Below are positions 28,017 to 56,137 of a stretch of 64,000 bases of DNA, piece by piece (the stretch's first letter is position 1; each line of letters begins with the position of its first letter). The translations under genes and the position numbers were made by a program. The stretch comes from Gammaproteobacteria bacterium (GTDB taxonomy: Bacteria; Pseudomonadota; Gammaproteobacteria; UBA4575). The DNA lies in contig JBGCFN010000036.1 of NCBI GenBank assembly GCA_045106935.1, forward strand, positions 2,678 to 66,677, written 5' to 3'. The notes beneath the pieces were generated by a model that was not told the DNA's origin, did not search any database, and saw only the letters and a list, made by a program, of their open reading frames with translations.

Positions 28017-28820
28017 TCACACAATTGATAGCAACATCTTCACGCCTAGCACTAACAAAAAGACTGCAAACACTTTCTTAAGCACGGGTATTGGTAATTT
28101 ATGCGCCAAACGTGCGCCCAATGGGGCGGTAAAGTAACTTACTAATGAGATCAGTATCACGGCTGGCAAATAAATAAAGCCAAACAAATACGTTTGCTGA
28201 TAGTCACTTCCCCAGCCATTGATTAAGTAACCTAAAGTCCCAGCTATTGCGATAGGAAAACCGACTGCCGCAGACGTGCCAATTGCTTTTTTTAGCGAGA
28301 TATTATGCCAGGCTAAAAATGGCACAGTTAAACTACCACCGCCAATCGCTACCACAGCAGAAATCGCTCCAATCCCTCCACCTGCTGCCAACAATCCTAT
28401 TTTGCCTGGGATAGTACGAGATGCCTTTGGTTGACTATTCAAGAACATTTGAATGGACACATAGGTCATAAATATTGCAAAAAATATAGCTAGGTAGCGA
28501 GCACTAACGAGTGTCACAAAATACGTGGCTGCAAATGTTCCGATCAGCACGCCAGGCGCCATGGCTTTTACCACCTGCCACACAACCCCTTGATGTTTTT
28601 GGTGTGCATATAAACTAGATGCAGAAGTCATTATGATAGACGCCATTGATGTGCCTAACGCCAAATGCACAACAGATTCTATCGGGACGTTCTTATATAG
28701 AAAATACGATGTCAGTACCGGCACCATAATGCCACCACCACCTACACCTAGGAGACCTGCAAAAAAACCAACAACGGCTCCCAGCAACAAAAATATAACA
28801 ATGCTATCGAGCCCAATCAC
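28017..28820 (-). CDS. TauE/SafE (TSUP) family anion exporter.
   Basis: About 8 TM helices, Gly-rich LLGVGGGGIMVP repeats in both halves. Confidence 0.8.
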   Translation of the reverse strand: MIGLDSIVIFLLLGAVVGFFAGLLGVGGGGIMVPVLTSYFLYKNVPIESVVHLALGTSMASIIMTSASSLYAHQKHQGVVWQVVKAMAPGVLIGTFAATYFVTLVSARYLAIFFAIFMTYVSIQMFLNSQPKASRTIPGKIGLLAAGGGIGAISAVVAIGGGSLTVPFLAWHNISLKKAIGTSAAVGFPIAIAGTLGYLINGWGSDYQQTYLFGFIYLPAVILISLVSYFTAPLGARLAHKLPIPVLKKVFAVFLLVLGVKMLLSIV

Positions 28821-32927: not shown

Positions 32928-33518
32928 ATGAAAACACACAACAATATTACTGGTTTAATACTTGCCGGCGGATTAGCTCGTCGCATGGGTGGGTCAGACA
33001 AAGGCCTGGTCGAATTAGGAGGACGGCCGATGATTGCCTACATCATTGATGCGTTAGCCCCTCAAGTAGGTTCTATTTTGATCAATGCTAATCGTAACAT
33101 TAGCTCTTATGAATCATACGGCTATGATGTGATTAGCGATGAACTTGAAAATTTTCAAGGCCCGTTGGCTGGCATGGCGAGCGGACTAAAGCACTGTCAT
33201 ACTGATTATATCGTGACCGTTCCTTGTGATGGGCCTGTATTGCCAGAAAATTATGTCGATATACTCCTGCAAGCCGCAACAGATGCGAATTGCCCGATCA
33301 GTGTTGGCTTCGACGGCGATCGATTACAACCGGTATATGCCCTGATTCACCGAGATTTATTAGACGATTTAAATGAATATCTTGCTTCTGGCGAACGTAA
33401 AATTGATCGTTGGTATGATAAACATAATTTTGTAAAAGCCAATTTTTCTTCATGCAAAGAAATGTTTACTAATATTAATACGCCTGAAGATGTGCAAGCA
33501 GCCAGTAAATTAATCTAG
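32928..33518 (+). CDS. mobA: Molybdenum cofactor guanylyltransferase.
   Basis: LILAGGLARRMGGSDKGL motif, VPCDGP. Confidence 0.85.
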   Translation: MKTHNNITGLILAGGLARRMGGSDKGLVELGGRPMIAYIIDALAPQVGSILINANRNISSYESYGYDVISDELENFQGPLAGMASGLKHCHTDYIVTVPCDGPVLPENYVDILLQAATDANCPISVGFDGDRLQPVYALIHRDLLDDLNEYLASGERKIDRWYDKHNFVKANFSSCKEMFTNINTPEDVQAASKLI

Positions 33519-33533
33519 CTAACACGACAATTA

Positions 33534-34067
33534 ATGATGAATTTAGACAACTGCCCCACACCTCTGATTGGATTTTGTGCTTTCAGTGGCACAGGCAAGA
33601 CAACGCTATTAACGAAACTGATCCCAATTCTCAGCCAGCGTGGCATTCGTCTCGCAGTCATTAAACATGCTCATCATAATTTTGATGTCGACCATGAAGG
33701 CAAAGATAGTTATCAGCTTCGCCATGCCGGTGCCGCACAGATGCTGATTTCATCCTCACGCCGCTGGGCATTAATGACCGAATTAAGTGAATCACAAACC
33801 GAATTATCATTACCAGACCTGGTGTCGAACATTGATCATGTAAACATCGACTTAATTTTAGTGGAAGGTTTCAAAAAGCTATCTTTCCCTAAAATTGAAT
33901 TACATCGACCAAGCTTGGGTCACCCTATTATGAGCCTAGACGATAAAAATATTATTGCCTTGGCCACAGATGAACCATGCGCCAATACTGAACAAGTAGT
34001 TTGCTTAGATATCAATGAACCTAAGGAGATAGCGACTTTTATCTGTAGTCACTTTAAGCTCGGCTAG
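33534..34067 (+). CDS. mobB: Molybdopterin-guanine dinucleotide biosynthesis adaptor MobB.
   Basis: P-loop GFCAFSGTGKTT, IKHAHH, LVEGFK. Confidence 0.85.
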   Translation: MMNLDNCPTPLIGFCAFSGTGKTTLLTKLIPILSQRGIRLAVIKHAHHNFDVDHEGKDSYQLRHAGAAQMLISSSRRWALMTELSESQTELSLPDLVSNIDHVNIDLILVEGFKKLSFPKIELHRPSLGHPIMSLDDKNIIALATDEPCANTEQVVCLDINEPKEIATFICSHFKLG

Positions 34068-37900: not shown

Positions 37901-38443
37901 TCATGTTGATCTAAGCTCTCTATAATAATCAATTAATACATCAAGACTATAGGCAGCATTGGCAGGACTGGGATTTGGGCTAACAAACACTTTCGCATTT
38001 ATTCTATCAACAGCATTAAACCCCCACTGCCAATCGCGTTTATCGGCATAGGCATAGCGCATGAATTTCCCCATCGCCACCTTTCCATGGAACCATACAA
38101 TCGCTGGCGCATAACAATCTATTTTTTCTCGAAGCATCGGTGCGTCTTGTTTGAAATCAGCAGCACGTAACTCGTGGCCCATGGCGCTTGCTCGCTTCGC
38201 TACATCTGTAAATCCTATGCCATGTTGTTCTAGCAACTGCTTATGAATATTTTTATTTGGCGCGACGTGCTCATCGATAATATTCGCTTGATTGAATGCT
38301 TTCCAGAATCGATTGCGCGGATTAGCAAAATAAAAACCCAATTTTGCTGAAGGGATGGATGGATTCAAGCCCACCGATAAAATCCTCAACCCATGGTCAA
38401 GGTAATCTGGCAGAAAAATGTCTTTATTTTTGACAGCAACCAT
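37901..38443 (-). CDS. mug: G/U mismatch-specific uracil-DNA glycosylase (Mug/TDG).
   Basis: ILSVGLNPS...NPRNRFW ... VSPNPSPANA parallels E. coli Mug. Confidence 0.85.
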   Translation of the reverse strand: MVAVKNKDIFLPDYLDHGLRILSVGLNPSIPSAKLGFYFANPRNRFWKAFNQANIIDEHVAPNKNIHKQLLEQHGIGFTDVAKRASAMGHELRAADFKQDAPMLREKIDCYAPAIVWFHGKVAMGKFMRYAYADKRDWQWGFNAVDRINAKVFVSPNPSPANAAYSLDVLIDYYRELRST

Positions 38444-38531
38444 CTTATTTATCTTTCAAACTTCTCGCTTTTACATTATATACTTACTTGAGCTAGATAC
38501 ATTTCATCAACCGACATAATGGAGTTTTACA

Positions 38532-39233
38532 GTGAACAAGACATATGAAATTACCACGATGGAATTAGGCCCAATGGAAAATTTCATTTATCTAATTACT
38601 GATATCAAAACTAAGCAAGCTGCGGTTGTCGATCCAGCATGGGATGCCGCTAAGATTATTCAACATGCAGCATCAAAAGAAATATGCATTACAGATATTT
38701 TACTAACACATAGCCACCATGACCACATCAATGGTGTTGAAGAAATCCTCAATCATTCTGACCCACAACTTCACTTATTAAAGCCAGAAGCTGATTTTTG
38801 GGAAGCAAATTTAAATAAACCTTCTTTGCATTATGGGGGTGACACACTGCATATTGGAGAAACCGAACTAACCATTTTACATACGCCTGGGCATACACCA
38901 GGTTCAGCATGTTATTTACTTAACAATGACATTATCACGGGTGACACTATGTTCGTATTTGGATGTGGACGTTGTGACTTACAAGGCGGTGACCCAGAAC
39001 AAATGTTTTCCACACTAAAAAAGATGAAGAATGAACTCGACCCAGAAACAGTCATTCTCCCAGGACATAATTACGCCAGTAAAGCGACATCCCATTTAAG
39101 CGAGCAAATAGACGGTAATCCTTTCCTACATTTCCACAAATGTAGCGATTTCGTGGAATATCGCATGCACACACACGACAAAACACGTGACACTCCATAC
39201 AACCCTGTGACTGCTCAAGAATTACTAAAATAA
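38532..39233 (+). CDS. MBL-fold metallo-hydrolase (glyoxalase II-like).
   Basis: THSHHDHINGV, HTPGHTPG. GTG start with a GGAG SD. Confidence 0.8.
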   Translation: MNKTYEITTMELGPMENFIYLITDIKTKQAAVVDPAWDAAKIIQHAASKEICITDILLTHSHHDHINGVEEILNHSDPQLHLLKPEADFWEANLNKPSLHYGGDTLHIGETELTILHTPGHTPGSACYLLNNDIITGDTMFVFGCGRCDLQGGDPEQMFSTLKKMKNELDPETVILPGHNYASKATSHLSEQIDGNPFLHFHKCSDFVEYRMHTHDKTRDTPYNPVTAQELLK

Positions 39234-39369
39234 ATTTAAATTATTTGTAATTAACACCACACTTTTGAGGTCTTGTATTTAACAACTCACAGCTGCAGCC
39301 AAATTATGCTGTCTTTATTGAGTTGCTTTAGGTTCACTCTTTACATAGATTTAATACAAGGAATTAATC

Positions 39370-39840
39370 ATGGAAAACCCAAAATTTGCTCCAAAAATGA
39401 CCGGTGTGGCACTTGCATTAGCGGCGGCTGGTATCATTGGCGGTTGCCAAACAACGACTGAAACCACTGAAGCGGCGGCGGCATCAAGCAATACCACAGA
39501 TTTAGTCCATTGCTATGGCGTTAATGTTTGCAAAGGCCATAATGATTGTGGCACTGCAGATAATTCATGTGGCGGTCAAGCATCTTGCAAAGGAAGTGGA
39601 TTCGTCGCTATGCCTAGTAAAGCATGCGGAGATGTTGGCGGCACAATCAAAGATGATTTTGTTGGTGAAGTTGCTAAAACAGACCTAATTCATTGTTATG
39701 GCGTCAACACTTGCAAAGGTCACAATGATTGTGGCACGTCTGAGAATGCCTGTGCAGGCCAAGCAGCATGCAAAGGTCATGGATTTGTCGGGACAACTGA
39801 AAAATCATGTGCAGATATTGGCGGCGAAGTAGGCGCATAA
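39370..39840 (+). CDS. bufA: Secreted 12-Cys tandem-repeat protein, a candidate bufferin-type (6/12-Cys class) RiPP precursor.
   Basis: Signal peptide MENPKFAPKMTGVALALAAAGIIGGC. Two 48-aa modules follow the pattern DL[VI]HCYGVN.CKGHNDCGT..N.C.GQA.CKG.GFV.....C.D.GG. Sits directly upstream of DUF692 and DUF2063 genes. Confidence 0.75.
   Translation: MENPKFAPKMTGVALALAAAGIIGGCQTTTETTEAAAASSNTTDLVHCYGVNVCKGHNDCGTADNSCGGQASCKGSGFVAMPSKACGDVGGTIKDDFVGEVAKTDLIHCYGVNTCKGHNDCGTSENACAGQAACKGHGFVGTTEKSCADIGGEVGA
39499..39825 (+). repeat. Intragenic tandem duplication (two 6-Cys modules, 183-nt period).
   Basis: Module 1 is 39499-39642 and module 2 is 39682-39825. All 6 Cys positions are conserved. 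DNA identity is roughly 80% by eye. Confidence 0.8.
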
Positions 39841-39861
39841 TTAAGCATCGACCCTAAAAAA

Positions 39862-39888
39862 CACGGGAAGTGCTTTGCATTTCCCGTG
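39862..39888 (+). terminator. Intercistronic hairpin between the precursor and the MNIO gene (possible attenuator).
   Basis: CACGGGAA / TTCCCGTG stem, 11-nt loop, weak T tract (ATTT). Confidence 0.4.
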
Positions 39889-39903
39889 ATTTAAAGAAAT
39901 AAA

Positions 39904-40731
39904 ATGGATAATAATTTTCTAGGATTTGGCGTAGGCTTGCGCACCGATCATTATCAGCATGTGGTCGACAACCAACCCGATGTTGATTGGTTTGAAGTGA
40001 TCTCCGAAAACTTTATGGTCGCGGGTGGCAAACCTAAATATTTTCTTCACAAGGTAAGAGAGCACTACCCTGTTGTAATGCATGGCGTATCTATGTCTAT
40101 CGCTAGCACCGATCCATTAAACATGGATTATTTGAAAAAATTAAAAACGTTATCTTCTGAAGTACAACCAGAATGGGTATCTGATCACCTGTGCTGGACT
40201 GGCGCAGAAGGATTAAACAGTCATGACTTATTACCTGTTCCCTACAATGATGAAGTAATCACACACATTGTTGACCGTGTACAACAAGTACAAGAAATAT
40301 TAGGAAGGGCATTAGTCCTTGAAAATGTCTCTAGCTATCTCACTTATAATCAATCAGAGATGGAAGAATGGGAATTCATTAATGCTATCGCTGATCGTTC
40401 TGGCTGCAAAATACTCCTAGACATTAACAACATATATGTCAGCTCACGCAATCATGATTTTTGCGCGCAAACATTTTTACACGCTATCAAGCCAGAACAT
40501 ATTCAACAATTTCATTTAGCTGGACATAGTGATTATGGAGACTATGTAATTGATACTCATGATCATGATGTCCCGCCTGCTGTATGGGACTTGTATGCCG
40601 ATGCAATTAAGAAGTTTGGCTTAATCAGTACATTAATTGAAAGAGATGACAATATTCCACCTTTTGAAGATCTGCATTCTGAAATGCAACATGCTCGTGA
40701 TATTGCACAACAAACCTTAGCCACCGTTTAG
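39904..40731 (+). CDS. bufB: DUF692 / UPF0276 multinuclear non-heme iron oxidative (MNIO) enzyme, BufB/MbnB/HvfB-like.
   Basis: GFGVGLRTDHY, WFEVISENFM, HGVSMSI, SDHLCW, LLPVPY, LVLENVSSY, CKILLDINNIYVSSRNH, FHLAGH, IDTHDHDV, TLIERDDNIP. All are canonical DUF692 blocks. Confidence 0.9.
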   Translation: MDNNFLGFGVGLRTDHYQHVVDNQPDVDWFEVISENFMVAGGKPKYFLHKVREHYPVVMHGVSMSIASTDPLNMDYLKKLKTLSSEVQPEWVSDHLCWTGAEGLNSHDLLPVPYNDEVITHIVDRVQQVQEILGRALVLENVSSYLTYNQSEMEEWEFINAIADRSGCKILLDINNIYVSSRNHDFCAQTFLHAIKPEHIQQFHLAGHSDYGDYVIDTHDHDVPPAVWDLYADAIKKFGLISTLIERDDNIPPFEDLHSEMQHARDIAQQTLATV

Positions 40732-40736
40732 GCACT

Positions 40737-41519
40737 ATGATGCAAGACTTGCGTCTCTTACAGTCAGATTTAATTAATTTTCTTATTCGTAAGAAAGGCA
40801 GAGTTGATGGTTACATTACTGACGGTGGACCTATAGATAAACAAACTCGTCTCGATATTTATAGCAATGCTTACGCACTGCGCTTGAGAGGTGTGATTGA
40901 TACTGACCATGAGATCTTGAGTTATTATCTGGGTGATGAATTATTTGATCAATTAGTTGATGGCTATATTCAGACCTACCCCTCTAATCACACTTCTTTA
41001 AGAGATTATTGCAGTAATATCCCAAATTACTTAGAAACAAATGCTCCGTTTAAAGATCATCCAATCATTGCTGAACTAGCACGTTTTGAACAAACCTTAT
41101 TATTTGCTTTTGACGCCAATGATGCAGACACTTCAAATATGCTGGATCTAAATAAGCTATCGCTTGAAGATTGGCCTAATATTAAAATTCGTTTTCATCC
41201 AAGCATGCAACTGTTCGAATGCAGCTACAATTGCGTTGATACTTGGCAAGCACTTAAAAAACAGACAACGCCACCAGCCGCACAAAAAATTGAGTATGCC
41301 GCTTGGGCAGTGTGGCGGAATAAACAAAAAATAACTGAATTCAGATCTCTTGATATTAGTGAGCTAACATCAATCAAAACTTTTTTGAAAGGCGGGTCTT
41401 TAAGCGACGTGTGTGAGCAACTTCTCTTACATCATCCTGAAGACGAAGTGAGCAAAGTGGCTGTGACTTATTTATCAGACTGGCTAAACCGCCATCAAGT
41501 TTCTTTAATTATCACCTAA
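40737..41519 (+). CDS. bufC: DUF2063 protein (MNIO partner, BufC/MbnC/HvfC-like).
   Basis: RLDIYSNAYALRLRGVIDTDHEIL..YLGDELFDQLVDGYIQTYPS...SLRDY...ELARFEQTLLFAFDA, the DUF2063 pattern. Lies 5 nt after bufB. Confidence 0.8.
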   Translation: MMQDLRLLQSDLINFLIRKKGRVDGYITDGGPIDKQTRLDIYSNAYALRLRGVIDTDHEILSYYLGDELFDQLVDGYIQTYPSNHTSLRDYCSNIPNYLETNAPFKDHPIIAELARFEQTLLFAFDANDADTSNMLDLNKLSLEDWPNIKIRFHPSMQLFECSYNCVDTWQALKKQTTPPAAQKIEYAAWAVWRNKQKITEFRSLDISELTSIKTFLKGGSLSDVCEQLLLHHPEDEVSKVAVTYLSDWLNRHQVSLIIT

Positions 41520-41527
41520 CAAATAAA

Positions 41528-41899
41528 CTATTTATTTTCCTGCTCTGAAATTGCAACGAGCACGTCTATCATTTCTGCCGCTTCACCAATATATGGTGCG
41601 ATATGTATCTTCACGTTATCGTACTCTTTTTGCTTTAGGTTCACGATTTCTGGAACGTCTTCATGAACATGACGACCTGCAGACAAAAAATATGGTAGCA
41701 CTGTGACATCTGTTGCTCCATTTTGCACCAGGCTATCAATACCCTCGGGAATAGAAGGTTCTGCCAATTCTAAGAAGGCATGGGATATATGAGCATAATT
41801 TCCTTTTACTTTTTCGCCCAACGACTTCGCTACCACGGCAATTTCTGCATTGGACTCTGCTCGGCGACTACCATGTGCAACTAATAACAATGATTTCAT
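41528..41899 (-). CDS. cbiX: Short CbiX/SirB-type sirohydrochlorin chelatase.
   Basis: LLVAHGSRRAESN, LELAEPSI, PYFLSAGRHV, 123 aa. Confidence 0.8.
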   Translation of the reverse strand: MKSLLLVAHGSRRAESNAEIAVVAKSLGEKVKGNYAHISHAFLELAEPSIPEGIDSLVQNGATDVTVLPYFLSAGRHVHEDVPEIVNLKQKEYDNVKIHIAPYIGEAAEMIDVLVAISEQENK

Positions 41900-42013
41900 A
41901 AATTTATAGCCTGTAGATGTAGAAATGATTCAATGAAGACATTCAATCATCTGGACGCTTGTGGGACAAGCTTAAGATTAGTCTTAGTTATACAGAAGAT
42001 AAACAGTGGGCAT

Positions 42014-44448: not shown

Positions 44449-45633
44449 ATGATTAAACCGCATGGAGGTGACAAACTCACCCCACTATACGTGGAAAACG
44501 ATGAGCAACGCGCAGCATTACTAACAGAAGCAGAGACGCTACCCAAGTTACTTGTCAATTCTGCCACCGCTGCGAATGCAGTGATGCTTGGCGCCGGATA
44601 TTTCACTCCATTAGCGGGATACATGACTAAAGCAGATGCCATTTCAGTTGCCAATACTATGCATACTAGTAGCGGTCTTTTCTGGCCGACTCCTGTATTA
44701 AACTTATGTAAAGATGTATCTGAAATTAGCGGGCATAATCGAATTGCGTTACTCGATCCAAATGTCGATGGTAATCCAGTCGTTGCTATTCAAACGGTCG
44801 AAGCGATTGAAGAGCTTAGTCAAGACGAGTTAGATTTAATCACCGAAAAGGTCTACGCGACAAAAGATCCAGACCATCCAGGTGTTGCAACGTTTACTTC
44901 ACTCGGTAATAAAGTAGTGTCCGGGCCTATCGAAGTACTGAACTACAGTTATTTTGAAACAGAATTTCCTGGCACATTTAGAACGGCCGTGCAGATTCGT
45001 GCTGAAATTGAAGAGCGTGGTTGGAAAAAAACTGTTGCCTTCCAGACTCGAAACCCTATGCATCGTGCTCACGAAGAATTATGCAAGATGGCTCAAGAGT
45101 CTACCAATGCTGACGGTGTTCTCATCCATATGTTGTTAGGACAATTAAAACCTGGCGATATTCCTGCTCCAGTACGTGATGCCGCTATTCGTAAGATGGT
45201 CGAATTATATTTCCCACCTAACACGGTCATGATCACTGGCTATGGATTCGACATGCTTTACGCCGGCCCTAGAGAGGGAGTTCTGCATGCAGTATTCAGA
45301 CAAAATTGTGGCTGCACTCATTTCATTATTGGTCGCGATCATGCCGGCGTGGGTGATTACTATGGTGCGTTTGATGCACAAACAATTTTTGATGATCAAG
45401 TACCTGAAGGCGCTTTAGAGATTGAAATATTCAATGCTGATCATACTGCTTATTCTAAGAAATTAGATAAAGTTGTCATGATGCGAGATGCCCCTGATCA
45501 CAGCAAAGAAGATTTTGTATTGCTTTCTGGTACCAAGGTGCGTGAAATGTTAGCTGCAGGTGAAGATCTTCCAAAGGAGTTTGCAAGACCCGAGGTGGCT
45601 AAGATATTAATGGAGCATTATCAAAATAGTTAA
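44449..45633 (+). CDS. sat: Sulfate adenylyltransferase (homo-oligomeric ATP sulfurylase).
   Basis: FQTRNPMHRAHEEL, IIGRDHAGVG, AAGGAG SD. Confidence 0.92.
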   Translation: MIKPHGGDKLTPLYVENDEQRAALLTEAETLPKLLVNSATAANAVMLGAGYFTPLAGYMTKADAISVANTMHTSSGLFWPTPVLNLCKDVSEISGHNRIALLDPNVDGNPVVAIQTVEAIEELSQDELDLITEKVYATKDPDHPGVATFTSLGNKVVSGPIEVLNYSYFETEFPGTFRTAVQIRAEIEERGWKKTVAFQTRNPMHRAHEELCKMAQESTNADGVLIHMLLGQLKPGDIPAPVRDAAIRKMVELYFPPNTVMITGYGFDMLYAGPREGVLHAVFRQNCGCTHFIIGRDHAGVGDYYGAFDAQTIFDDQVPEGALEIEIFNADHTAYSKKLDKVVMMRDAPDHSKEDFVLLSGTKVREMLAAGEDLPKEFARPEVAKILMEHYQNS

Positions 45634-45688: not shown

Positions 45689-46396
45689 TTAAATAAAGGT
45701 CATCAAAGAAGAATTTAACTTTGCTTCAAATATCTTTAAGGATTCTTCATCTTCAGATAATAGCGCTAATGTCCCCTTATTAGTGCCCAATAAAACACCT
45801 TTGAAAAAATGATCGCTAAAGTGAATATTCTTTTCACCATCTAAAGCTTCAGGGAAAACTATCAAGGTAACTGGTGCATTCTCACCTGCAAAAACAATAT
45901 GCACACCGACTTTATCTTGAATCACACAATTTCCTGCATGCGTCGCATAACCGATATTTTCATCTGCTCGCACACCATGAGGTTTCAGCAACTGATTTAA
46001 GCTTTCTAAAGTGACATGGCCTTTGTCCTCCAACACCCACAACTCTTCATGTGCATGCTCCAAAATTACATCGGCAATAGCTGGAGATGTATTAAATGTG
46101 GATACAATCGACACTGCAAACACCAACATGACACTGGCTGCAATTGCACTCCAACGATATTTTTGGACGCCAGTTTTTTTCTTATGCAGATTATGCTCAA
46201 CCAAAATGCGAGACGCTAAGCCTTCTGGCACATCTACGTCGACAGCTTTCTTAAGTACTGAATTAAACTTAAGCTGTTTCTCATAAAAAGATTTACACGT
46301 TGAGCAATTTGAAAGGTGCTGAACAAACGCCGCATCCTTGTCTTTAATGTCAGTTGTTATTTTGCGTCTTGCCGCTAAACAGTTCATATCATCCAT
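45689..46396 (-). CDS. Anti-sigma factor (DUF3379-like, zf-HC2 N-terminus, single TM).
   Basis: HLSNCSTCKSF Cys cluster, TM WSAIAASVMLVFAVSIV. Lies 2 nt downstream of the ECF sigma gene. Confidence 0.7.
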   Translation of the reverse strand: MDDMNCLAARRKITTDIKDKDAAFVQHLSNCSTCKSFYEKQLKFNSVLKKAVDVDVPEGLASRILVEHNLHKKKTGVQKYRWSAIAASVMLVFAVSIVSTFNTSPAIADVILEHAHEELWVLEDKGHVTLESLNQLLKPHGVRADENIGYATHAGNCVIQDKVGVHIVFAGENAPVTLIVFPEALDGEKNIHFSDHFFKGVLLGTNKGTLALLSEDEESLKIFEAKLNSSLMTFI

Positions 46397-46398
46397 AA

Positions 46399-46956
46399 CT
46401 AAATTGAGACCTCTTGAGTCTCGTCCTCTTCCAATAACTTTCTTAATTTCTGTCTGGCTCTAAAGACTCGCGTCATGACGGCACCAGGTTTAGCATCAAT
46501 TATCGTGGCAATTTCATTACAAGAATAGCCCCCAATAACTTGTAGCACCAATGGTTCAGCATAAGAGGCTGGTAACTGGCGTAAGGCTGCACGAACAGCC
46601 ATGTTATCTACATTGGCAAAATCATCTTCGACTGTCGCAAATACTTCGACCATTTCATCATCAAGCGTCGTTAATTCTGCTTGAGCACTTTTTTTCTCAA
46701 AACGGCGAGCATTTTCACGCCGCAGTATCGTGAATAGCCAACTTTTTGCCGCTTTTGCATCGTTGAGAGAATCAATCGCTCGCCAAGCACGTAAAAATGT
46801 CTCTTGTACGAGGTCTTCAGCAATCGCCGCATCCTTACTCAACCAATATCCATAACGATAAAGATCTTTCGAATAGGCATGCACCATGGATTCAAATCCC
46901 TGCTCTTTTGTATTCATGTCTACTAGACCCAACTTTTCTGTACTTTCTTTCACCAT
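46399..46956 (-). CDS. ECF-type RNA polymerase sigma-70 factor.
   Basis: Region 2 DLVQETFLRAW. Region 4 EIATIIDAKPGAVMTRVFRARQKL. Confidence 0.9.
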   Translation of the reverse strand: MVKESTEKLGLVDMNTKEQGFESMVHAYSKDLYRYGYWLSKDAAIAEDLVQETFLRAWRAIDSLNDAKAAKSWLFTILRRENARRFEKKSAQAELTTLDDEMVEVFATVEDDFANVDNMAVRAALRQLPASYAEPLVLQVIGGYSCNEIATIIDAKPGAVMTRVFRARQKLRKLLEEDETQEVSI

Positions 46957-47172
46957 TTAAGCGATTTTATCGGTTAATTTCACATAAAATGACATAGTTA
47001 GCTTCCATTTGTAATAATTTTTACAGAATAAAGTCAATCGTACAGTGTTTATCTAGTACATCCAGACATTCTTGCTAGGTCCAGTTTCTTATACGTAGTA
47101 GAATTGCACAAGATAAAGTATGTGCTTAATATAGGCATAAATAATAACAGTATTTTAATTGAGGTATTTTTC

Positions 47173-47349
47173 ATGGTTTGCAATGTCGGTGATACAGAGA
47201 GAATGGCTAGAATTTTAGTTGGACTACTGATAATTGGGATAGGATTTGCACTCTCATCTTGGTGGGGAGTGATAGGAATCATACCCGTATTTACAGGAAT
47301 AACAGCTTGGTGTCCGGCCTATCTACCATTTAATATTTCTACCAAATAA
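47173..47349 (+). CDS. DUF2892 (YgaP-like) small membrane protein.
   Basis: MVCNVGDTERMARILVGLLIIGIG...GITAWCPAY. GAGG SD ahead of the ATG at 47173. The track ORF is over-extended. Confidence 0.7.
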   Translation: MVCNVGDTERMARILVGLLIIGIGFALSSWWGVIGIIPVFTGITAWCPAYLPFNISTK

Positions 47350-47466
47350 TTGGATAGTTAAACTACCAGCAGGTTTGATAAAACATATTCAAAACAAATA
47401 AATACACACCGCCCTGGTTAATCTTTAGGGCAATACATTGGAAGTAATAAAGCTTGGAGATTAGAC

Positions 47467-47781
47467 ATGTTTGGATTAGGTAAAAAGAAAGACTTCACTG
47501 CAACAATTGTTAACAGTGGACAAACTTTTGAAGTAAAGGGTGGCATTAATTTGTTGCAAGCTGCATTAAATGCTGGAATTGAATGGCCACATGATTGCCG
47601 TGTTGGCAGCTGTGGTTCATGCAGAGCAACGATCAAGAGCGGCAAAGTCAAAGCATTGAACGACTTTTCATATGTTCTTGATGGTGAGCAATTAAAAAGT
47701 GGAATGGTATTAGCTTGCCAATCCAGATTGCAAAGCGATATAGAAGTTGAAGTTGATTTCGAGCAAGGCTCAATAAACTAG
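47467..47781 (+). CDS. Plant-type [2Fe-2S] ferredoxin.
   Basis: CRVGSCGSCRATIKSG...LACQS cluster ligands. Confidence 0.85.
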   Translation: MFGLGKKKDFTATIVNSGQTFEVKGGINLLQAALNAGIEWPHDCRVGSCGSCRATIKSGKVKALNDFSYVLDGEQLKSGMVLACQSRLQSDIEVEVDFEQGSIN

Positions 47782-47792
47782 CACTAGATCAT

Positions 47793-47823
47793 ACAAGCAC
47801 GAGTTTTTATAACTCGTGCTTGT
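47793..47823. terminator. 13-bp perfect hairpin between convergent genes (no U-tract).
   Basis: ACAAGCACGAGTT-tttat-AACTCGTGCTTGT. Confidence 0.45.
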
Positions 47824-47839
47824 AAATCATGTTACACCC

Positions 47840-48968: not shown

Positions 48969-49982
48969 TTAAATTTGTATATTTTCATACTTAATCACAT
49001 GCGCTAATGCATCTTCAAGAATCGCACGTGATTGCGCAGAGGTTGCATGTAAAAAAGCATGCAATTCAGCATCCTGGTCATTCTTGTTTTCACATTCAGC
49101 ACTATAAATCTCAAACGCAACCAAACTTTTAATTAAGTCTGATAAATGTTTAGGGCACTCGCATTGAATTGAAGACGATATTCTCGCCAAACTACCTAAC
49201 TGCTTAGAGCTATACCGCCGCGTCGGCAGTGAATCTTCCAGATATACAGTTGAACTGTCTGTGGCAAGTAAATTTTTAGAATCACCACCCGAGCGGTCCA
49301 TGCATAAGCGAGCCAATTCATAAACATCAATTGATGACCTAATGGCACTGACTTGAGGGCTTTGTAATTGATTAATTTCGACTTGAGAACCAAATCCGTA
49401 TAGAACAATGACATGCCAAACACCCATATCTTTTAAGAGTTTTGATACATATTTTCTGGTTGCCTCATTAATAGTCGGCCGCTCGATGATGGCCACATGA
49501 ACTAATGATGCTGGTTCCTGCTGCTTCCAGCTTTCAATTGACTCAGCATGCCCAAGCAAATCTATTCCATCAAAATCGGACATTCCATCCATGACTCTCA
49601 GAGGAAAGTCTTCACCCAGCAATAGCACACGGCATAATTGATTATTTGACATCTGTCCTTCGTGAGCATTCATTTGATTGGAGCGTTGCTCACTAAGCTG
49701 CACACTATTTTCCCATTTACCTTTGAGCTCATGTACAGAGAGCCGTGCAATTGTGCCAATGGAATTACCGGCGTCAGATAAATTCTTCAACAAAAATAAC
49801 TTTGCTAGATCGTCACTACTATATACACGATCTCCAGATTCTGAACGACTCGGAACCACCGCTTGGTAACGTCTTTCCCAAGCACGAAGTGTCTCAGTCC
49901 CTATTCCGGTTATTTTTGATACCGCACCGATTTTATATTCGTCCTTACGTATTTGTGCTTCCATCTGTCCATCCTCGTACAT
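48969..49982 (-). CDS. MerR-family transcriptional regulator with an unrecognised C-terminal region of about 230 aa.
   Basis: HTH YKIGAVSKITGIGTETLRAWERRYQAV, with the effector half unlike metal- or drug-sensing MerRs. C-terminal CECPKHL...C motif. Confidence 0.7.
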   Translation of the reverse strand: MYEDGQMEAQIRKDEYKIGAVSKITGIGTETLRAWERRYQAVVPSRSESGDRVYSSDDLAKLFLLKNLSDAGNSIGTIARLSVHELKGKWENSVQLSEQRSNQMNAHEGQMSNNQLCRVLLLGEDFPLRVMDGMSDFDGIDLLGHAESIESWKQQEPASLVHVAIIERPTINEATRKYVSKLLKDMGVWHVIVLYGFGSQVEINQLQSPQVSAIRSSIDVYELARLCMDRSGGDSKNLLATDSSTVYLEDSLPTRRYSSKQLGSLARISSSIQCECPKHLSDLIKSLVAFEIYSAECENKNDQDAELHAFLHATSAQSRAILEDALAHVIKYENIQI

Positions 49983-50527: not shown

Positions 50528-51805
50528 ATGAAAAAGTTGAGTTTGTGGTCAGTGTTATGTGTTGAGATGATTACATGGTCATCAAGCGCATTCTCAGACA
50601 CTATTAAAGTAGGCGTACTTCACTCGCTATCAGGCACGATGGCAATTAGTGAAACCACACTAAAAGATACGGTGCTGATGATGGTTGAAGAGCAAAACAA
50701 AGCCGGCGGACTATTAGGCAAGCAATTAGAAGCAGTCGTGGTTGATCCAGCTTCAGACTGGCCATTGTTTGCGGAGAAAATGCGTGAATTAGTCGAAGTT
50801 CATAAAGTAGATGTGATCTTTGGCTGTTGGACTTCAGTATCAAGAAAATCAGTACTTCCTGTTGTTGAAGAACTTAATGGGTTACTTTTCTACCCTGTTC
50901 AATATGAAGGTGAAGAATCCTCTAAAAATGTTTTCTACACAGGTGCTTCGCCAAACCAACAAGCAATACCTGCAGTAGACTATTTGATGGATGGCGGTGT
51001 AGAGCGCTGGGTATTAGCAGGAACTGACTATGTATACCCTCGTACAACCAATAAAATTCTCGAATCATATTTAAAGCTTAAAGGTGTCGATGAAAAAGAT
51101 ATCATGATCAATTACACACCGTTTGGTCACTCTGACTGGCAAACAATTGTCTCTGATATTAAGGCGTTTGGCTCAGCAGGGAAAAAGACAGCCGTCGTCT
51201 CAACAATCAATGGTGATGCTAATGTTCCTTTCTACAAAGAATTAGGCAACCAAGGATTATCTGCTGAAGACATTCCTGTCGTGGCATTCTCAGTGGGTGA
51301 AGAAGAACTTTCAGGCATTGATACTGCACCACTAGTGGGTCATCTTGCCGCTTGGAATTATTTCCAAAGCGCAGAGAGTGAAGAAAATGATAACTTCATC
51401 GAAGCATGGCAAGCATTCATTGGTAACGAAGATCGCGTGACTAACGACCCAATGGAAGCAACTTACATTGGTTTCAAGATGTGGGCTGAAGCAGTCTCTA
51501 AAGCAGGCACAACTGAAGTCGATAAAGTACGCCCAGCAATGTACGGACTAGAAGTGCCCAACTTAACTGGCGGCACTGCAGTCATGAATACTAATCATCA
51601 CTTATCTAAGCCAGTACTCATTGGTGAAATCCAAGATGATGGGCAATTTGAGATCGTGTGGTCTACAGACAGTGAAGTGAAAGGTGATGCATGGACTGAT
51701 TACTTACCTGAAAGTGCAGTGATTGTCTCTGACTGGGCAGACCCAGCAATCAATTGTGGTAATTTCAATACTGAGACTAAGAAGTGCTCAGGACAGAATT
51801 ACTAA
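50528..51805 (+). CDS. urtA: Urea ABC transporter substrate-binding protein.
   Basis: Signal peptide, LIV-type periplasmic binding fold with the UrtA-typical start DTIKVGVLHSLSGTMAISE. First gene of urtABCDE. Confidence 0.9.
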   Translation: MKKLSLWSVLCVEMITWSSSAFSDTIKVGVLHSLSGTMAISETTLKDTVLMMVEEQNKAGGLLGKQLEAVVVDPASDWPLFAEKMRELVEVHKVDVIFGCWTSVSRKSVLPVVEELNGLLFYPVQYEGEESSKNVFYTGASPNQQAIPAVDYLMDGGVERWVLAGTDYVYPRTTNKILESYLKLKGVDEKDIMINYTPFGHSDWQTIVSDIKAFGSAGKKTAVVSTINGDANVPFYKELGNQGLSAEDIPVVAFSVGEEELSGIDTAPLVGHLAAWNYFQSAESEENDNFIEAWQAFIGNEDRVTNDPMEATYIGFKMWAEAVSKAGTTEVDKVRPAMYGLEVPNLTGGTAVMNTNHHLSKPVLIGEIQDDGQFEIVWSTDSEVKGDAWTDYLPESAVIVSDWADPAINCGNFNTETKKCSGQNY

Positions 51806-51845
51806 GTTATAGATAATCAAAATAATACGTAACCTAGTTACTAAT

Positions 51846-51874
51846 AGGGCGTTCAATAACTGGACGCCCTTTTT
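51846..51874 (+). terminator. Intra-operon hairpin after urtA (partial terminator / stabiliser).
   Basis: AGGGCGT-N11-ACGCCCT followed by TTTT. Confidence 0.55.
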
Positions 51875-51887
51875 AATAATAAAGATA

Positions 51888-53528
51888 ATGTTACTAAAAT
51901 TACCATCCATATTATTACTTTTATTCTTGCTTATCAGCACATCTTTTGCTGATGCGATTGATGAAGGCAATACTGTGCTTAGCTTCCCCGAATTAGTTGC
52001 TAATCTAACGACTAAAAAATTTGATGAAAAAGCCATCCTCATCAATAAAATTCAACAGTCAGAACATCCAAGATCACTAACTATTCTAGCCAAACTATTG
52101 GATGGAAGAATTTATTATAAAAAAGATGATAAAACAGTTGTTATTGCTGAAATTACAAAAAAAACAGCTAGCATAATAAATGCAAGTACCGGTGAACCAT
52201 TAGGTCAAACAACTAAAAAGAAACTCAAAAAAGTAGGTATTAATAACAAATTAAGGCGTGTATTAAATTCTTCTATTGCACAGCTAAGCCTGAACAATGA
52301 AGATCCTAAAATCAGAAAATCTGCCGCTGTAGAAATGTTTAAAAATATGGATGACGAGATGTCTTCTATATTACAAAAACAACTCGGCGTAGAAAAAAAT
52401 GAACATGTTATAGAAACTCTAAAAACAGCAATTTCAATTAATCAGCTTAAATCTTCTGTCTACGATGACAAGCTACAAGCAATTAAATCCTTATCTAATT
52501 CACTCTACCCTGAAGTACGTGCTGCTTTAAATCAATTAGAGAAAAATCTATCTAATGAGCCTCAAACATCACAGTCTCGAACGCTAATAGAAGCGATACA
52601 GAATTCCTTAAAAAAGATCGAATCAAGAGTAGGCATTTACAAACAAATAGAAAATATATTTTTTGGTATCAGCTTAGGCTCGGTTTTATTACTTATTGCT
52701 GTAGGATTAGCCATTACATTTGGTGTCATGGGTGTTATCAATATGGCACACGGTGAAATGCTCATGCTTGGCGCCTACACTACTTATATCATTCAGTTAT
52801 TACTACCAAACCATATTGAATACTCAATACTTATTTCAATTCCAACCGCATTTATTTTTACTGGACTAGTTGGCATTGGTATTGAACGAGGCGTGATTAG
52901 ATTTCTCTATGGTCGACCATTAGAAACTTTATTAGCCACCTTTGGCATTAGCTTAATTTTACAACAAGCGGTTAGGACACTTATCTCTCCACAAAACCGT
53001 GCAGTGTCAACACCAGAATGGATGAGCGGCTCACTTGATATCAATCCTGCATTATCTCTGACATATAACCGACTCTATATCATTATATTTGCTTTGTTAG
53101 TGCTAGCAGGATTAATGCTGTTATTAAATAAATCCAAATTTGGCTTACAAGTGAGGGCTGTGACACAAAACCGTTCCATGGCTAAAGCGATGGGTATTAA
53201 AACTGATTGGGTAGATGCATTCACCTTTGGTCTTGGTTCTGGCATTGCGGGCATAGCCGGTGTTGCACTAAGCCAGCTAACAAATGTTGGCCCCAATTTA
53301 GGTCAAGCCTACATTATCGATTCATTCATGGTGGTCGTCTTTGGTGGCGTTGGAAATCTATGGGGTACATTGTTTGGTGCAATGACTCTAGGCATCGCAA
53401 ACAAATTTCTAGAACCATCGATGGGTGCTGTGTTAGCGAAAATAATCGTATTGATATTCATTATATTGTTCATTCAAAAAAGACCTCGAGGCATGTTTGC
53501 TTTAAAGGGTCGCTCTGTAGACAACTAA
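51888..53528 (+). CDS. urtB: Urea ABC transporter permease UrtB with an N-terminal extension of about 250 aa.
   Basis: The C-terminal about 290 aa is a LivH-type permease (GVINMAHGEMLMLGAY...). The N-terminus has a signal-like MLLKLPSILLLLFLLISTSFADA and a Lys-rich helical repeat region. Confidence 0.88.
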   Translation: MLLKLPSILLLLFLLISTSFADAIDEGNTVLSFPELVANLTTKKFDEKAILINKIQQSEHPRSLTILAKLLDGRIYYKKDDKTVVIAEITKKTASIINASTGEPLGQTTKKKLKKVGINNKLRRVLNSSIAQLSLNNEDPKIRKSAAVEMFKNMDDEMSSILQKQLGVEKNEHVIETLKTAISINQLKSSVYDDKLQAIKSLSNSLYPEVRAALNQLEKNLSNEPQTSQSRTLIEAIQNSLKKIESRVGIYKQIENIFFGISLGSVLLLIAVGLAITFGVMGVINMAHGEMLMLGAYTTYIIQLLLPNHIEYSILISIPTAFIFTGLVGIGIERGVIRFLYGRPLETLLATFGISLILQQAVRTLISPQNRAVSTPEWMSGSLDINPALSLTYNRLYIIIFALLVLAGLMLLLNKSKFGLQVRAVTQNRSMAKAMGIKTDWVDAFTFGLGSGIAGIAGVALSQLTNVGPNLGQAYIIDSFMVVVFGGVGNLWGTLFGAMTLGIANKFLEPSMGAVLAKIIVLIFIILFIQKRPRGMFALKGRSVDN

Positions 53529-53532
53529 GCTT

Positions 53533-54678
53533 ATGGAAAAATCTCTCTTACAACGGTTACTTTTATCTGATACCGGCAGCAAGATACTCACGATAGTAAT
53601 AATATTTATCGCGATAGTTGTCCCTGCACTTAATTTACTTGCGCCAGTGGATTCACCACTGCATATCTCCACATATACAGTTACCTTATTAGGCAAGTAT
53701 CTTTGTTATGCCCTACTTGCTCTATCTGTAGATTTAGTATGGGGATACTTAGGCATATTAAGTTTAGGCCATGGTGCATTTTTTGCCTTAGGTGGCTACG
53801 CAATGGGCATGTATTTAATGCGTCAAATTGGTGATCGTGGCGTATATGGAAACCCATTACTTCCTGATTTCATGGTGTTCTTGAATTGGGAATCTCTACC
53901 ATGGTATTGGTTTGGCTTTGACCACTTTTCAATAGCACTATTAATGATGTTTGCTGCTCCAGGAATTCTTGCTTATGTATTTGGTTGGCTAGCATTTCGA
54001 TCACGCGTCACAGGCGTATACTTATCGATAATGACGCAGGCGATGACGTATGCCTTAATGCTCGCATTTTTTCAAAATGATTTTGGCTTTGGTGGGAATA
54101 ACGGACTCACCGATTTTAAAGAAATTTTAGGCTTCAATCTTCAAGACAACACGACACGATGTGCATTATTTGTCGCATCAGCAGTCGCCTTACTTAGTGG
54201 CTATGCTTTGTGTAAATATATTGCCCAGTCGCGTTTAGGTAGCTTAGTCATGGCGATTCGCGACTCTGAAAGTCGCGTAAGATTTATGGGTTATCGAGAT
54301 GAACATATCAAATTATTTATATTTGTTATTTCAGCCATGCTCGCAGGAATTGCGGGCGCACTATATGTCCCTCAAGTTGGCATCATTAACCCTAGTGAAT
54401 TTGCACCGATTCGTTCAATAGAGTTAGTCATATGGGTGGCCATTGGCGGGCGTGGCACATTATATGGCGCAGTATTAGGCGCATTTGTTGTCAATTATGC
54501 AAAAACTTTCTTTACAGCTTGGGCACCAGAAGCTTGGTTATTTATTTTAGGAGGTATTTTTGTATTTGTTACTGTTTTCATGCCTAAAGGTTTGGTGGGA
54601 ATTTACAATCAAGCTCGCACACGTAATACCAGAAAAAAATCTATGAAAGAATCACAAGCAAATATAAGGAATTCATGA
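53533..54678 (+). CDS. urtC: Urea ABC transporter permease.
   Basis: LivM-type permease (GILSLGHGAFFALGGY). Confidence 0.9.
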   Translation: MEKSLLQRLLLSDTGSKILTIVIIFIAIVVPALNLLAPVDSPLHISTYTVTLLGKYLCYALLALSVDLVWGYLGILSLGHGAFFALGGYAMGMYLMRQIGDRGVYGNPLLPDFMVFLNWESLPWYWFGFDHFSIALLMMFAAPGILAYVFGWLAFRSRVTGVYLSIMTQAMTYALMLAFFQNDFGFGGNNGLTDFKEILGFNLQDNTTRCALFVASAVALLSGYALCKYIAQSRLGSLVMAIRDSESRVRFMGYRDEHIKLFIFVISAMLAGIAGALYVPQVGIINPSEFAPIRSIELVIWVAIGGRGTLYGAVLGAFVVNYAKTFFTAWAPEAWLFILGGIFVFVTVFMPKGLVGIYNQARTRNTRKKSMKESQANIRNS

Positions 54679-55424
54679 TGGAAAAAAATGAATCCATATT
54701 ATATCTAAACAATGTATCAGTTAGCTTTGATGGTTTTAAAGCAATAAATGAGTTAAGTCTTTATATAGATAAGAATGAATTACGCTGCATTATTGGGGCA
54801 AATGGCGCCGGTAAAACAACAATGATGGATATTATCACTGGCAAGACCAAACCAGATGAAGGTGAAGTCTATTTCGGTGATCACATCGATCTAACCACAA
54901 AAGATGAAGCCGAAATCGCCAATTTAGGTATCGGTCGAAAATTTCAAAAACCTACTGTGTTTGAAAATCATAGTGTGTTTGAGAATTTACAACTCGCTCT
55001 TGAAGGCCATCGCAATATTTTAAGCAACCTTTTTTACAAACTTAATGAAGACCAACGCAATAAAATTGATTCATCATTAGAAACCATTGGCCTTGAAGCT
55101 GAAAAATACAGAATGGCTGGAGAGTTATCACATGGCCAAAAACAATGGTTAGAAATTGGTATGTTAATCACGCAAAATCCACAGGTGCTGTTAGTTGATG
55201 AGCCCGTTGCAGGAATGACACATCAAGAATCTGAACGTACCGCAGAGTTACTGACATCATTAGCAACACGCCATTCAGTCGTAGTAGTGGAACATGATAT
55301 GGAATTTGTCAGATCAATAGCTAGGCGAGTTACTGTCTTACATCAAGGTTCGGTACTCGCTGAAGGTACAATGGATAAAATTCAAAATGATCGTAAAGTA
55401 ATTGAAGTATATTTAGGAGATTAA
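54675..55424 (+). CDS. urtD: Urea ABC transporter ATP-binding protein.
   Basis: Walker A GANGAGKTT, signature LSHGQKQ, Walker B LLLVDEP. Confidence 0.9.
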   Translation: MMEKNESILYLNNVSVSFDGFKAINELSLYIDKNELRCIIGANGAGKTTMMDIITGKTKPDEGEVYFGDHIDLTTKDEAEIANLGIGRKFQKPTVFENHSVFENLQLALEGHRNILSNLFYKLNEDQRNKIDSSLETIGLEAEKYRMAGELSHGQKQWLEIGMLITQNPQVLLVDEPVAGMTHQESERTAELLTSLATRHSVVVVEHDMEFVRSIARRVTVLHQGSVLAEGTMDKIQNDRKVIEVYLGD

Positions 55425-55425
55425 T

Positions 55426-56115
55426 ATGTTAAGTGTTTCTTCAATTAATCAATACTATCGAGAAAGCCATACGCTTTGGGATCTTTCATTAGAGGTGCCT
55501 AAAGGCAGCGTCACATGTTTGATGGGACGAAATGGTGTTGGGAAAACAACGCTTTTGAAATGTATTATGGGATTAGAGTCAATCACAGATGGAACCATTC
55601 AATTTAAAGATACTGAAATTAGCAAATTAAATGCAGAGAAACGTGCAATCCATAAAATTGGCTATGTGCCTCAAGGCAGAGAAATATTTTCTCAGTTAAC
55701 CGTTGAAGATAATTTAAATACAGGTCTTGTAGCCAATAATTCAAGGCAATTACCTTCCATTATTTTTGAACTTTTCCCAGTCCTGAAAGAAATGTTACAT
55801 CGCCGCGGCGGTGATTTATCTGGCGGCCAACAACAGCAGCTGGCACTTGGGCGCGCATTGGCGATTGAACCTGAATTACTCATTCTCGACGAACCAACAG
55901 AGGGCATACAACCCAACATAGTGCGTGAAATTGGTGACATCATAAAAAAATTAAACGAAGAGCTCGGACTCACGGTATTATTAGTAGAACAAAAATTACC
56001 ATTTGCAAGACGTGTTGCTTCTAATTTTTGTATATTAGAAAAAGGTCGTGACGTTGCCAATGGCTCAATGAACGAATTAGACGACCAACTAATCAATAAA
56101 TACTTAAAAGTTTAA
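55426..56115 (+). CDS. urtE: Urea ABC transporter ATP-binding protein.
   Basis: Walker A GRNGVGKTT, signature LSGGQQQ, Walker B LLILDEP. Confidence 0.9.
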   Translation: MLSVSSINQYYRESHTLWDLSLEVPKGSVTCLMGRNGVGKTTLLKCIMGLESITDGTIQFKDTEISKLNAEKRAIHKIGYVPQGREIFSQLTVEDNLNTGLVANNSRQLPSIIFELFPVLKEMLHRRGGDLSGGQQQQLALGRALAIEPELLILDEPTEGIQPNIVREIGDIIKKLNEELGLTVLLVEQKLPFARRVASNFCILEKGRDVANGSMNELDDQLINKYLKV

Positions 56116-56137
56116 AAAAAGCATATAGGAGAATATT

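Follow-up and report, generated by a model that had tools for sequence, protein, structure and literature searches.

The DNA considered here is a 64,000-nucleotide (nt) window, that is, the whole stretch analysed (positions 2,678 to 66,677 of contig JBGCFN010000036.1, GenBank assembly GCA_045106935.1), from a gammaproteobacterium of the UBA4575 lineage. Its subject is a three-gene locus at positions 39370-41519, bufABC, predicted to encode a Cys-rich precursor (BufA), an oxidase (BufB) and a partner protein (BufC). An earlier note on this DNA, made from the letters alone, had described three tightly packed genes on one strand, and the open reading frames (ORFs) lie exactly as claimed, with gaps of 63 nt (39841-39903) between bufA and bufB and 5 nt (40732-40736) between bufB and bufC. 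The G+C content is even across the region (0.39-0.41), and a good Shine-Dalgarno sequence, AAGGA, stands ahead of the bufA ATG. All three ORFs are intact, and nothing suggests a pseudogene. The locus is read here, with a probability of about 80%, as a self-contained bufABC operon of the bufferin-2 family (Buf2; precursor BufA2, formerly BUF_6/12Cys) in an uncultured marine gammaproteobacterium; this figure covers the favoured explanation as a whole, the identity of the operon together with the mechanism proposed below. The features are collected in Table 1.

Table 1. Features of the bufABC locus and of the second motif site, in window coordinates (aa, amino acids).
Feature	Position	Strand	Remark
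Promoter-like motif GTAAT-N17-GGTCT	39247-39273	+	97-123 nt upstream of the bufA ATG
bufA	39370-39840	+	156-aa ORF
Predicted lipoprotein-type signal peptide of BufA	39370-39447 (aa 1-26)	+	Lipobox IIGG↓C
Thr/Ala/Ser-rich linker of BufA	aa 27-42		
6-Cys domain 1 of BufA	39496-39648 (aa 43-93)	+	
6-Cys domain 2 of BufA	39679-39837 (aa 104-156)	+	
RNA hairpin	39862-39888	+	bufA-bufB spacer; 12-bp stem, then a weak U-tract
bufB	39904-40731	+	275-aa ORF
bufC	40737-41519	+	260-aa ORF
Second motif copy, GTAATACTCACCACAAAATCATGGTCT	13670-13696	+	34 nt upstream of the TlpA/DsbE-like gene, 26 kb from bufA
Gene for secreted or lipoprotein TlpA/DsbE-like thioredoxin-fold protein	13730-14275		
Gene for ChrR-type double cupin (double Cupin_7)	14288-14971		Directly after the TlpA-like gene

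BufA matches the NCBIfam model NF050166 (Cu_RiPP_BufA2) with 139 bits (cut-off 60, E = 4.3e-41) in two stretches that correspond to its two domains; this and all other NCBIfam comparisons use release 20.0 and its curated equivalog cut-offs. No Pfam family matches BufA, so the DUF2282 domain (PF10048) that marks Buf1 precursors is not found in it. The twelve rigidly spaced cysteines described in the earlier note are present and form two units of identical spacing (6, 6, 7, 6 and 13 residues), Cys48/54/60/67/73/86 and Cys109/115/121/128/134/147; the total, however, is 13, as Cys26 in the lipobox comes on top of the core. The two units align with each other across 51 residues (local score 224), and all 12 core cysteines are invariant across 85 BufA homologues. 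The proposed membership of the 12-Cys class is confirmed by the two BufA2 domains and the passed NF050166 model.

The N-terminus of BufA carries Lys5 and Lys9, followed by a hydrophobic stretch and by IIGG↓C. This signal peptide, MENPKFAPKMTGVALALAAAGIIGG↓C, has Cys26 at its end and agrees with the Sec/lipoprotein type named in the earlier note; it fits a lipobox pattern of the PROSITE PS51257 type, by which alone it was judged. Judged by its sequence, the Sec-type signal peptide appears to replace the leader of a classical RiPP (a peptide made by ribosomes and modified after translation). The AlphaFold model of BufA, built from 85 homologues, has a mean predicted local distance difference test (pLDDT) score of 66.9. 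Values above 90 are reached by its scaffold, in which residues 42-49, 78-81, 92-102, 107-110 and 139-142 form strands and residues 83-88 and 144-149 form helices. Within each domain, Cys I is placed in the first β-strand and Cys VI in a short helix, a modeled topology that is compatible with a disulfide between these outer cysteines. BufA1 has the same disulfide-bearing topology, and the predicted structure of BufA2 has been called very similar (PMC11626156). A fold search of the BufA model, with its low-confidence Cys loops, against the PDB gave no matches, and the BufA sequence matches no PDB chain; no bufferin structure appears to have been deposited there.

BufB matches Pfam family PF05114 (MbnB_TglH_ChrH) with 368.8 bits (cut-off 25, E = 1.8e-110) and NCBIfam NF050167 (MNIO_BufB) with 377.9 bits (cut-off 310, E = 2.2e-113). 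The HvfB, ApyH, MbnB and ChrH models all score under their cut-offs, with 266.3 bits against 360 for HvfB and 70.6 bits against 325 for MbnB (TIGR04159). All the DUF692 motifs that had been listed for the second gene (WFEVISENFM, SDHLCW, LENVSSY, LLDINNIYVSSRNH, FHLAGH, IDTHDHDV and LIERDD) are present in the translation. Sequence matches in the PDB are the DUF692 structure 3BWW (E = 2.5e-44), TglH (8HCI) and MbnB (7DZ9, 7TCR and 7FC0). The iron ligands of MbnB are His54, His90, Glu133, Asp163, Asn166, His192, Asp208, His210 and Glu239 (PMC9060507). When mapped by phmmer alignment to 7TCR_A, all nine are kept in BufB, as H60, H95, E140, D173, N176, H204, D217, H219 and E246. BufB is therewith predicted to be a bufferin maturase from the family of multinuclear non-heme iron oxidases (MNIO, formerly DUF692).

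BufC matches Pfam PF09836 (DUF2063) in residues 8-99 with 54.9 bits (cut-off 27.2, E = 1.1e-14), so that the DUF692 and DUF2063 assignments of the second and third genes are both significant, and the profile search suggested in the earlier note is positive for DUF692, DUF2063, BufA2 and BufB. No PDB chain matches the BufC sequence. Its AlphaFold model (81 homologues, pLDDT 93.8) finds 3DEE as the top Foldseek match in the PDB (E = 9.4e-07, TMt 0.75), followed by TglI (8HI7_A and 8HCI_A); 3DEE is NGO1945, that is NgoC, the partner protein of the gonophorin system (PMC13097082). The C-terminal part of the model matches the RiPP recognition element (RRE) proteins of lasso-peptide systems 6JX3_B (probability 0.99) and 5V1U_B (0.92). 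As modeled, BufC has the PME1 architecture, in which DUF2063 forms the N-terminal domain and an RRE-like (winged-helix) peptide-recognition domain the C-terminal one. The earlier note had also attributed a DUF2063-type partner to MbnBC and TglHI, which does not hold: neither MbnC nor TglI belongs to the DUF2063 (PME1) proteins, and MbnB is not found beside a PME1 gene (PMC13097082). Taken together, the profile matches of the three proteins indicate that the locus type is Buf2, and not Buf1 (DUF2282), oxazolin or methanobactin.

The linkage of the three genes was surveyed in a scan of one genome per species, which gave 180 genomes encoding a protein related to the precursor; the 80 best loci were taken from these, with precursor similarity as the sole criterion. 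bufB lies directly downstream of bufA in all 80, and bufC is present downstream in 79, the exception ending at a contig edge. The link between the Cys-rich gene and an MNIO gene, which the earlier note had proposed to check, is thereby borne out. The loci belong to marine Gammaproteobacteria, including Shewanella, Amphritea, Marinobacterium, Halioglobus, Marinicella, Colwellia and Endozoicomonas, and to many metagenome-assembled genomes (MAGs); the closest precursor relatives (78-86% identity) are from MAGs of uncultured Gammaproteobacteria and "Thiotrichales". The flanks of the window, with genes for an MBL-fold hydrolase, CbiX, PilZ, UDG, VanZ, DsbB, MetX, MsrB and ATP sulfurylase, recur only in the four closest MAGs among the 80 loci. 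The constant linkage and the unconserved flanks argue that bufABC is a mobile, self-contained module with the flanking genes outside it. The upstream MBL-fold gene (38532-39233), the downstream CbiX gene (41528-41899) and the PilZ gene were each considered as parts of the cluster and rejected, as they accompany bufABC in only 4 of the 80 loci.

The two-domain, 12-Cys architecture is found in 79 of the 80 loci. Of 81 precursors, 56 show a lipobox pattern, and in these a linker of 17-28 residues stands ahead of the first core Cys; the other 25, most of them from Shewanella, show an ordinary Ala-X-Ala-type site for signal peptidase I. The protein clusters that match BufA at E = 1e-5 or better number 1178. 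The earlier expectation of three hypothetical proteins from routine annotation is outdated: older public records of BufA homologues do read "hypothetical protein" or "Lipoprotein", but NCBIfam 20.0 holds equivalogs for two of the three genes, and NCBI/UniRef names homologues of 65-73% identity "BufA2 family periplasmic bufferin-type metallophore". One homologue in a MAG (locus L073, 6001-6457) is seemingly devoid of a signal peptide and has a C-terminal extension and 14 Cys; its ORF call begins MVQCHG and the protein ends in GAQSHCPC. This form may be a genuine variant, or else the result of a frameshift or an assembly error.

The spacer between bufA and bufB folds into a hairpin of -20.1 kcal/mol (z = -4.64), which none of 200 shuffled sequences equalled. 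In 79 of 80 loci the equivalent spacer has a folding energy of -10 kcal/mol or lower, and in 67 its z is at most -2. The hairpin sequences are unrelated among the loci, and a T-run follows many of them; six close relatives share a consensus helix of 11 pairs, three of which have changes on both sides. The hairpin is probably a partial (leaky) terminator or a 3′ stabilizer and would so increase precursor output relative to the enzymes. The tight gaps together with the conserved spacer hairpin point to one transcription unit for bufABC. Downstream, the stop codon of bufC is separated by 8 nt (41520-41527) from that of a convergent gene for a CbiX-type small chelatase (41528-41899, minus strand), and this spacing leaves no room for a terminator between the two. 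The best NCBIfam match of the CbiX-type gene is a CfbA-like sirohydrochlorin nickelochelatase, under its cut-off. A scan of 38400-42000 for σ70 promoters and terminators gave no excess over chance (promoters, 7 against 11.7 expected; terminators, 1 against 2.4) and was discarded.

The mechanism proposed for the locus starts from the characterized homologues, and modification, lipidation, copper binding and regulation at this site are all inferred. In Caulobacter vibrioides, Buf2 with its six cysteines carries four Cys at -4.03 Da each and one disulfide, a total of -18 Da, and absorbs near 305 nm (PMC11626156). The modification has been settled as 5-thiooxazole, and oxazolin has likewise been re-assigned from oxazolone/thioamide to 5-thiooxazole (PMC13097082; bioRxiv 10.64898/2025.12.15.693703). 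By analogy, the operon would be transcribed from its own promoter, probably the extracytoplasmic function (ECF)-like element upstream of bufA, and the hairpin after bufA would favor the output of precursor. In the cytoplasm, BufC would hold the precursor through its RRE-like domain and hand it to BufB, which would use its multi-iron centre and O2 to oxidize, in each 6-Cys domain, the four central Cys by four electrons each, yielding eight 5-thiooxazoles in total. The signal peptide would then direct the protein to the Sec pathway, where Cys26 would be modified with diacylglycerol, signal peptidase II would cut before it and N-acylation would follow; with Gln at position +2, the Lol system would probably route the lipoprotein to the outer membrane. 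Within each domain, a disulfide would join Cys I to Cys VI. The mature two-domain protein of 131 residues, tethered to the membrane, would chelate periplasmic Cu(I)/Cu(II) through the N and S donors of the thiooxazoles and buffer copper stress. Transcription, handover, oxidation and chelation are taken from the homologues in this scheme, and lipoprotein export and disulfide formation from sequence rules. Residues 26-156 have an unmodified mass of 12,993 Da, and eight oxidations (-4.03 Da each) with two disulfides (-2.02 Da each) are predicted to change the mass of the peptide part by -36.3 Da. Loss of alkylatable thiols, which had been suggested as a read-out, would mislead, as the modified Cys of bufferins stay alkylatable and appear as carbamidomethyl plus -4.03 Da (PMC11626156).

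The upstream element was recognized as a block common to near relatives upstream of bufA, TGTAAT-N17-GGTCT. It is found upstream of bufA in 12 of 81 loci, including those of Marinicella and Woeseia, against 1.7 ± 1.3 in shuffles. Within the window there are exactly two matches (0.23 expected), the second being the copy ahead of the TlpA/DsbE-like gene. A weight matrix built from non-window sites only scores these two at 34.5 and 24.4, the latter being the bufA site, whereas the next best site scores 8.4 and the shuffle maximum is 18.9. Of ten metagenomic genes related to the TlpA-like one, with identities as low as 52%, five have the motif at -61 to -79, and three further ones have near-variants picked by eye; the motif is thus conserved in relatives at both the bufA and the TlpA-like site. 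We take it to resemble promoters of the ECF type, the -35 element being of the AAT type and the -10 element of the GTCT type, and the copy at 39247-39273 is presumed to act as a promoter. Two tandem copies, at about -150 and -75, are seen upstream of bufA in three related MAGs of Gammaproteobacteria/"Thiotrichales" (L025, L031 and L036). The double Cupin_7 protein encoded after the TlpA-like gene resembles the C-terminal part of ChrR and has no ChrR anti-sigma N-terminus.

A tentative reading, on balance rather doubtful, extends this further: the tandem-domain, lipid-anchored Buf2 of marine Gammaproteobacteria might belong to a small ECF-driven envelope regulon (TGTAAT-N17-GGTCT) together with the secreted TlpA-like thiol-disulfide oxidoreductase and the ChrR-type cupin. 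Such a regulon would serve membrane-tethered copper or redox handling, for example by supplying or protecting periplasmic cuproenzymes, and its bufferins would not be simple copper sponges. If true, this would be the first lead on the regulation of Buf2 clusters outside Caulobacter. Through the conserved upstream motif and the hairpin after bufA, the regulation and stoichiometry of Buf2 operons become accessible to testing.

An ECF sigma factor of the PRK12517 subfamily (219.8 bits) is encoded with a DUF3379 anti-sigma protein at 45689-46956 (minus strand), 4.2 kb downstream of bufC. The DUF3379 protein shows a faint RsrA/ZAS-like match, and the intergenic region upstream of the sigma gene is unusually long (883 nt, 46957-47839). 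As the regulator of buf this pair is unsupported: the motif is missing from the 883-nt region, where the best matrix score is 7.4, under the shuffle maximum, and the pair is not found in non-syntenic buf loci, whose fetched flanks reach that distance only partly. Published surveys place sigma/anti-sigma genes in Buf1 clusters and not in Buf2 clusters (PMC12452194).

On the other side of the window, a PpoB2-type membrane copper chaperone (PF09948, 220.5 bits) is encoded at 9655-10524 (minus strand), divergent from the gene of a DUF1326 protein (10581-11183, plus strand). The pair lies about 2.5 kb upstream of the TlpA-like gene and is adjoined by the gene of a secreted CAP-family protein (11590-12165).

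Several points weigh against a copper-buffering Buf2 operon with the proposed processing. Gly at position -2 of the BufA lipobox is less usual. The BufA model is weak overall, and the loops with the central Cys fall below a pLDDT of 50. BufC passes no curated NCBIfam equivalog; on the HvfC model, whose cut-off is 142, it scores 36.8 bits. The genes adjoining bufABC include none for a copper-sensing regulator or for copper efflux, and experimental work on a two-domain or lipidated Buf2 was not found in the literature searched. Finally, a related marine MNIO/DUF2063 cluster in Microbulbifer (mmr) was neither expressed nor copper-responsive (PMC12538549), and a role in copper stress is for this reason not guaranteed at the locus.

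In one alternative, the biosynthesis is the same and the job is not that of a copper-stress buffer but another one: a copper chaperone or store for periplasmic or membrane cuproenzymes, the handling of another thiophilic metal, or envelope thiol or oxidative stress. The motif shared by bufA and the TlpA/DsbE-like gene with its ChrR-type double cupin speaks for such a role. TlpA-type proteins serve the maturation of cuproenzymes in other bacteria. The window also holds the PpoB2-type copper chaperone gene, and no copper-efflux or copper-sensor gene was seen among its ORFs of at least 110 aa. To this come the lack of copper induction of the mmr cluster (PMC12538549) and the MerC-Buf2 fusions, which suggest other metals for some bufferins (PMC12452194). 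However, the sole functional data in the family, those on Buf1 and Buf2 of C. vibrioides, show copper induction and protection (PMC11626156), the co-regulation of the TlpA-like gene is deduced from the motif alone, and sequence data do not address metal specificity; we regard this alternative as unlikely. That BufA is instead an unmodified, disulfide-rich or thiolate metal-binding lipoprotein, with bufB and bufC acting elsewhere or inactive, is highly improbable: a sizeable share of Buf2 precursor genes lie away from MNIO genes (PMC12452194) and unmodified HvfA still binds 2-3 copper ions (PMC11252979), but in this subfamily the linkage to bufB and bufC is close to complete (80/80 and 79/80), BufB retains all iron ligands, the three ORFs are intact, the tight gaps and the conserved spacer hairpin point to a single transcription unit, and the BufA2 and BufB equivalog models are passed. 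The copper-buffering Buf2 operon remains the favoured explanation.

Among the other scanned ORFs of the window of at least 110 aa there is no second MNIO, no DoxX (usual, like sigma/anti-sigma genes, in Buf1 clusters) and no classical copper-resistance gene. A MerR-family regulator of 337 aa is encoded at 48969-49982 (minus strand); its MerR helix-turn-helix accounts for the N-terminal 80 residues only, and no Pfam family matches the C-terminal ~250 residues at an E-value of 1e-4 or lower. Sulfur-related genes encode an ATP sulfurylase of the Sat type (44449-45633, plus strand), a TauE/SafE sulfite exporter (28017-28820, minus strand) and a Na/sulfate-type symporter (7711-9219, plus strand). 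Genes of the molybdenum cofactor are those for MoaA (6651-7664), MoaE (4941-5435), MoCF_biosynth of the MoaB/Mog type (5731-6255), MobA (32928-33518) and MobB (33534-34067). A truncated globin gene lies at 6258-6644. Together with the "Thiotrichales" label of some of the closest MAGs, this gene content hints at a sulfur-metabolizing marine gammaproteobacterium. Further downstream, 50528-61304 (plus strand) holds a urea ABC transporter, made up of a UrtA-like Peripla_BP_5 protein with two permeases and two ATPases, followed by the urease genes for UreD, the alpha subunit, UreE, UreF and UreG, and genes for a FliA-type sigma factor and a MinD/FlhG-like protein are found at 62266-63901.

Among marine Gammaproteobacteria the subfamily of two-domain, putatively lipidated bufferins is common, with matches in 180 genomes that each represent a species, and this spread could make it relevant to marine copper handling. 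The closest known system is Bufferin 2 of C. vibrioides (BufA2-BufB2-BufC2, CCNA_02999-03001), which shares the precursor family, the MNIO type and the DUF2063 partner with the locus. Bufferins were defined in PMC11626156, where the C. vibrioides buf2 cluster is a bufA-bufB-bufC operon without DoxX, copper-induced through SigF and protective against copper. Both systems are three-gene operons without DoxX, have six conserved Cys per domain and employ a signal peptide for export and not a cleaved leader. The locus differs by its tandem duplication of the 6-Cys domain, by a signal peptide that ends in a lipobox and by a larger distance between Cys I and Cys VI, 38 residues compared to 26 in C. 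vibrioides (core Cys24 and Cys50). A SigF/NrsF pair is not at hand at the locus, which has a different ECF-like promoter motif, and while Bufferin 2 of C. vibrioides has been characterized by experiment, the locus is known from its sequence.

Both variant features of the locus are already contained in published Buf2 surveys, where they are described bioinformatically only. Six conserved Cys are present in 90% of Buf2 precursors and 12 in the rest, about 10%; for one 12-Cys member, AlphaFold predicts a duplication of the 6-Cys domain, and lipoprotein signal peptides are found in ~16% of the precursors (PMC12452194). The parts of these surveys consulted do not state that the 12-Cys form and the lipobox co-occur, whereas both are found together in 56 of the 81 precursors of the marine gammaproteobacterial subfamily. 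Lipidated bufferins have been predicted again in a later study, in which lipidation was demonstrated for another MNIO RiPP, DybA (PMC13056109).

The MNIO-PME1 class has been named "captophorins", with Buf2 in its Cys-Lys precursor group (PMC13097082). The EGKCG-type captophorins oxazolin (HvfABC), fontiphorin (FonABC) and gonophorin (NgoABC) have, like the locus, a closely related MNIO and a PME1 partner (PMC11252979, PMC13097082). Their 5-thiooxazole chemistry and Cu(I) binding are those proposed for the locus, and NgoC (3DEE) is the best structural match of BufC. The precursors differ: the EGKCG type has Lys-Cys (EGKCG) repeats, while BufA has none and is of the folded Cys-Lys type. FonBC failed to process the Buf2-type motifs HNDCK and NACKG (PMC13097082).

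The methanobactin (MbnABC) and 3-thiaglutamate (TglHI) systems belong to the same MNIO superfamily, with the nine iron ligands and Cys substrates, and TglI is a structural neighbor of BufC. MbnBC yields an oxazolone/thioamide product and TglHI excises a β-carbon, both in contrast to the thiooxazoles proposed for the locus; their precursors have leader peptides and no signal peptide, and their partners are not DUF2063 proteins. The lipidated MNIO RiPPs of the DybA and chryseobasin type resemble the locus in their lipobox precursor, which enters the lipoprotein pathway after modification in the cytoplasm (PMC13056109). They employ a ChrH-type MNIO that forms a macrocycle with a hydantoin and not thiooxazoles, and lipidation is experimental in their case and predicted at the locus. 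The family, its chemistry, the 12-Cys and lipoprotein subsets and the cluster architecture were all published in 2024-2026 and are captured by curated models. Each of the features highlighted in the earlier note is thus on record for a known family, of which the locus is a genuine but ordinary member.

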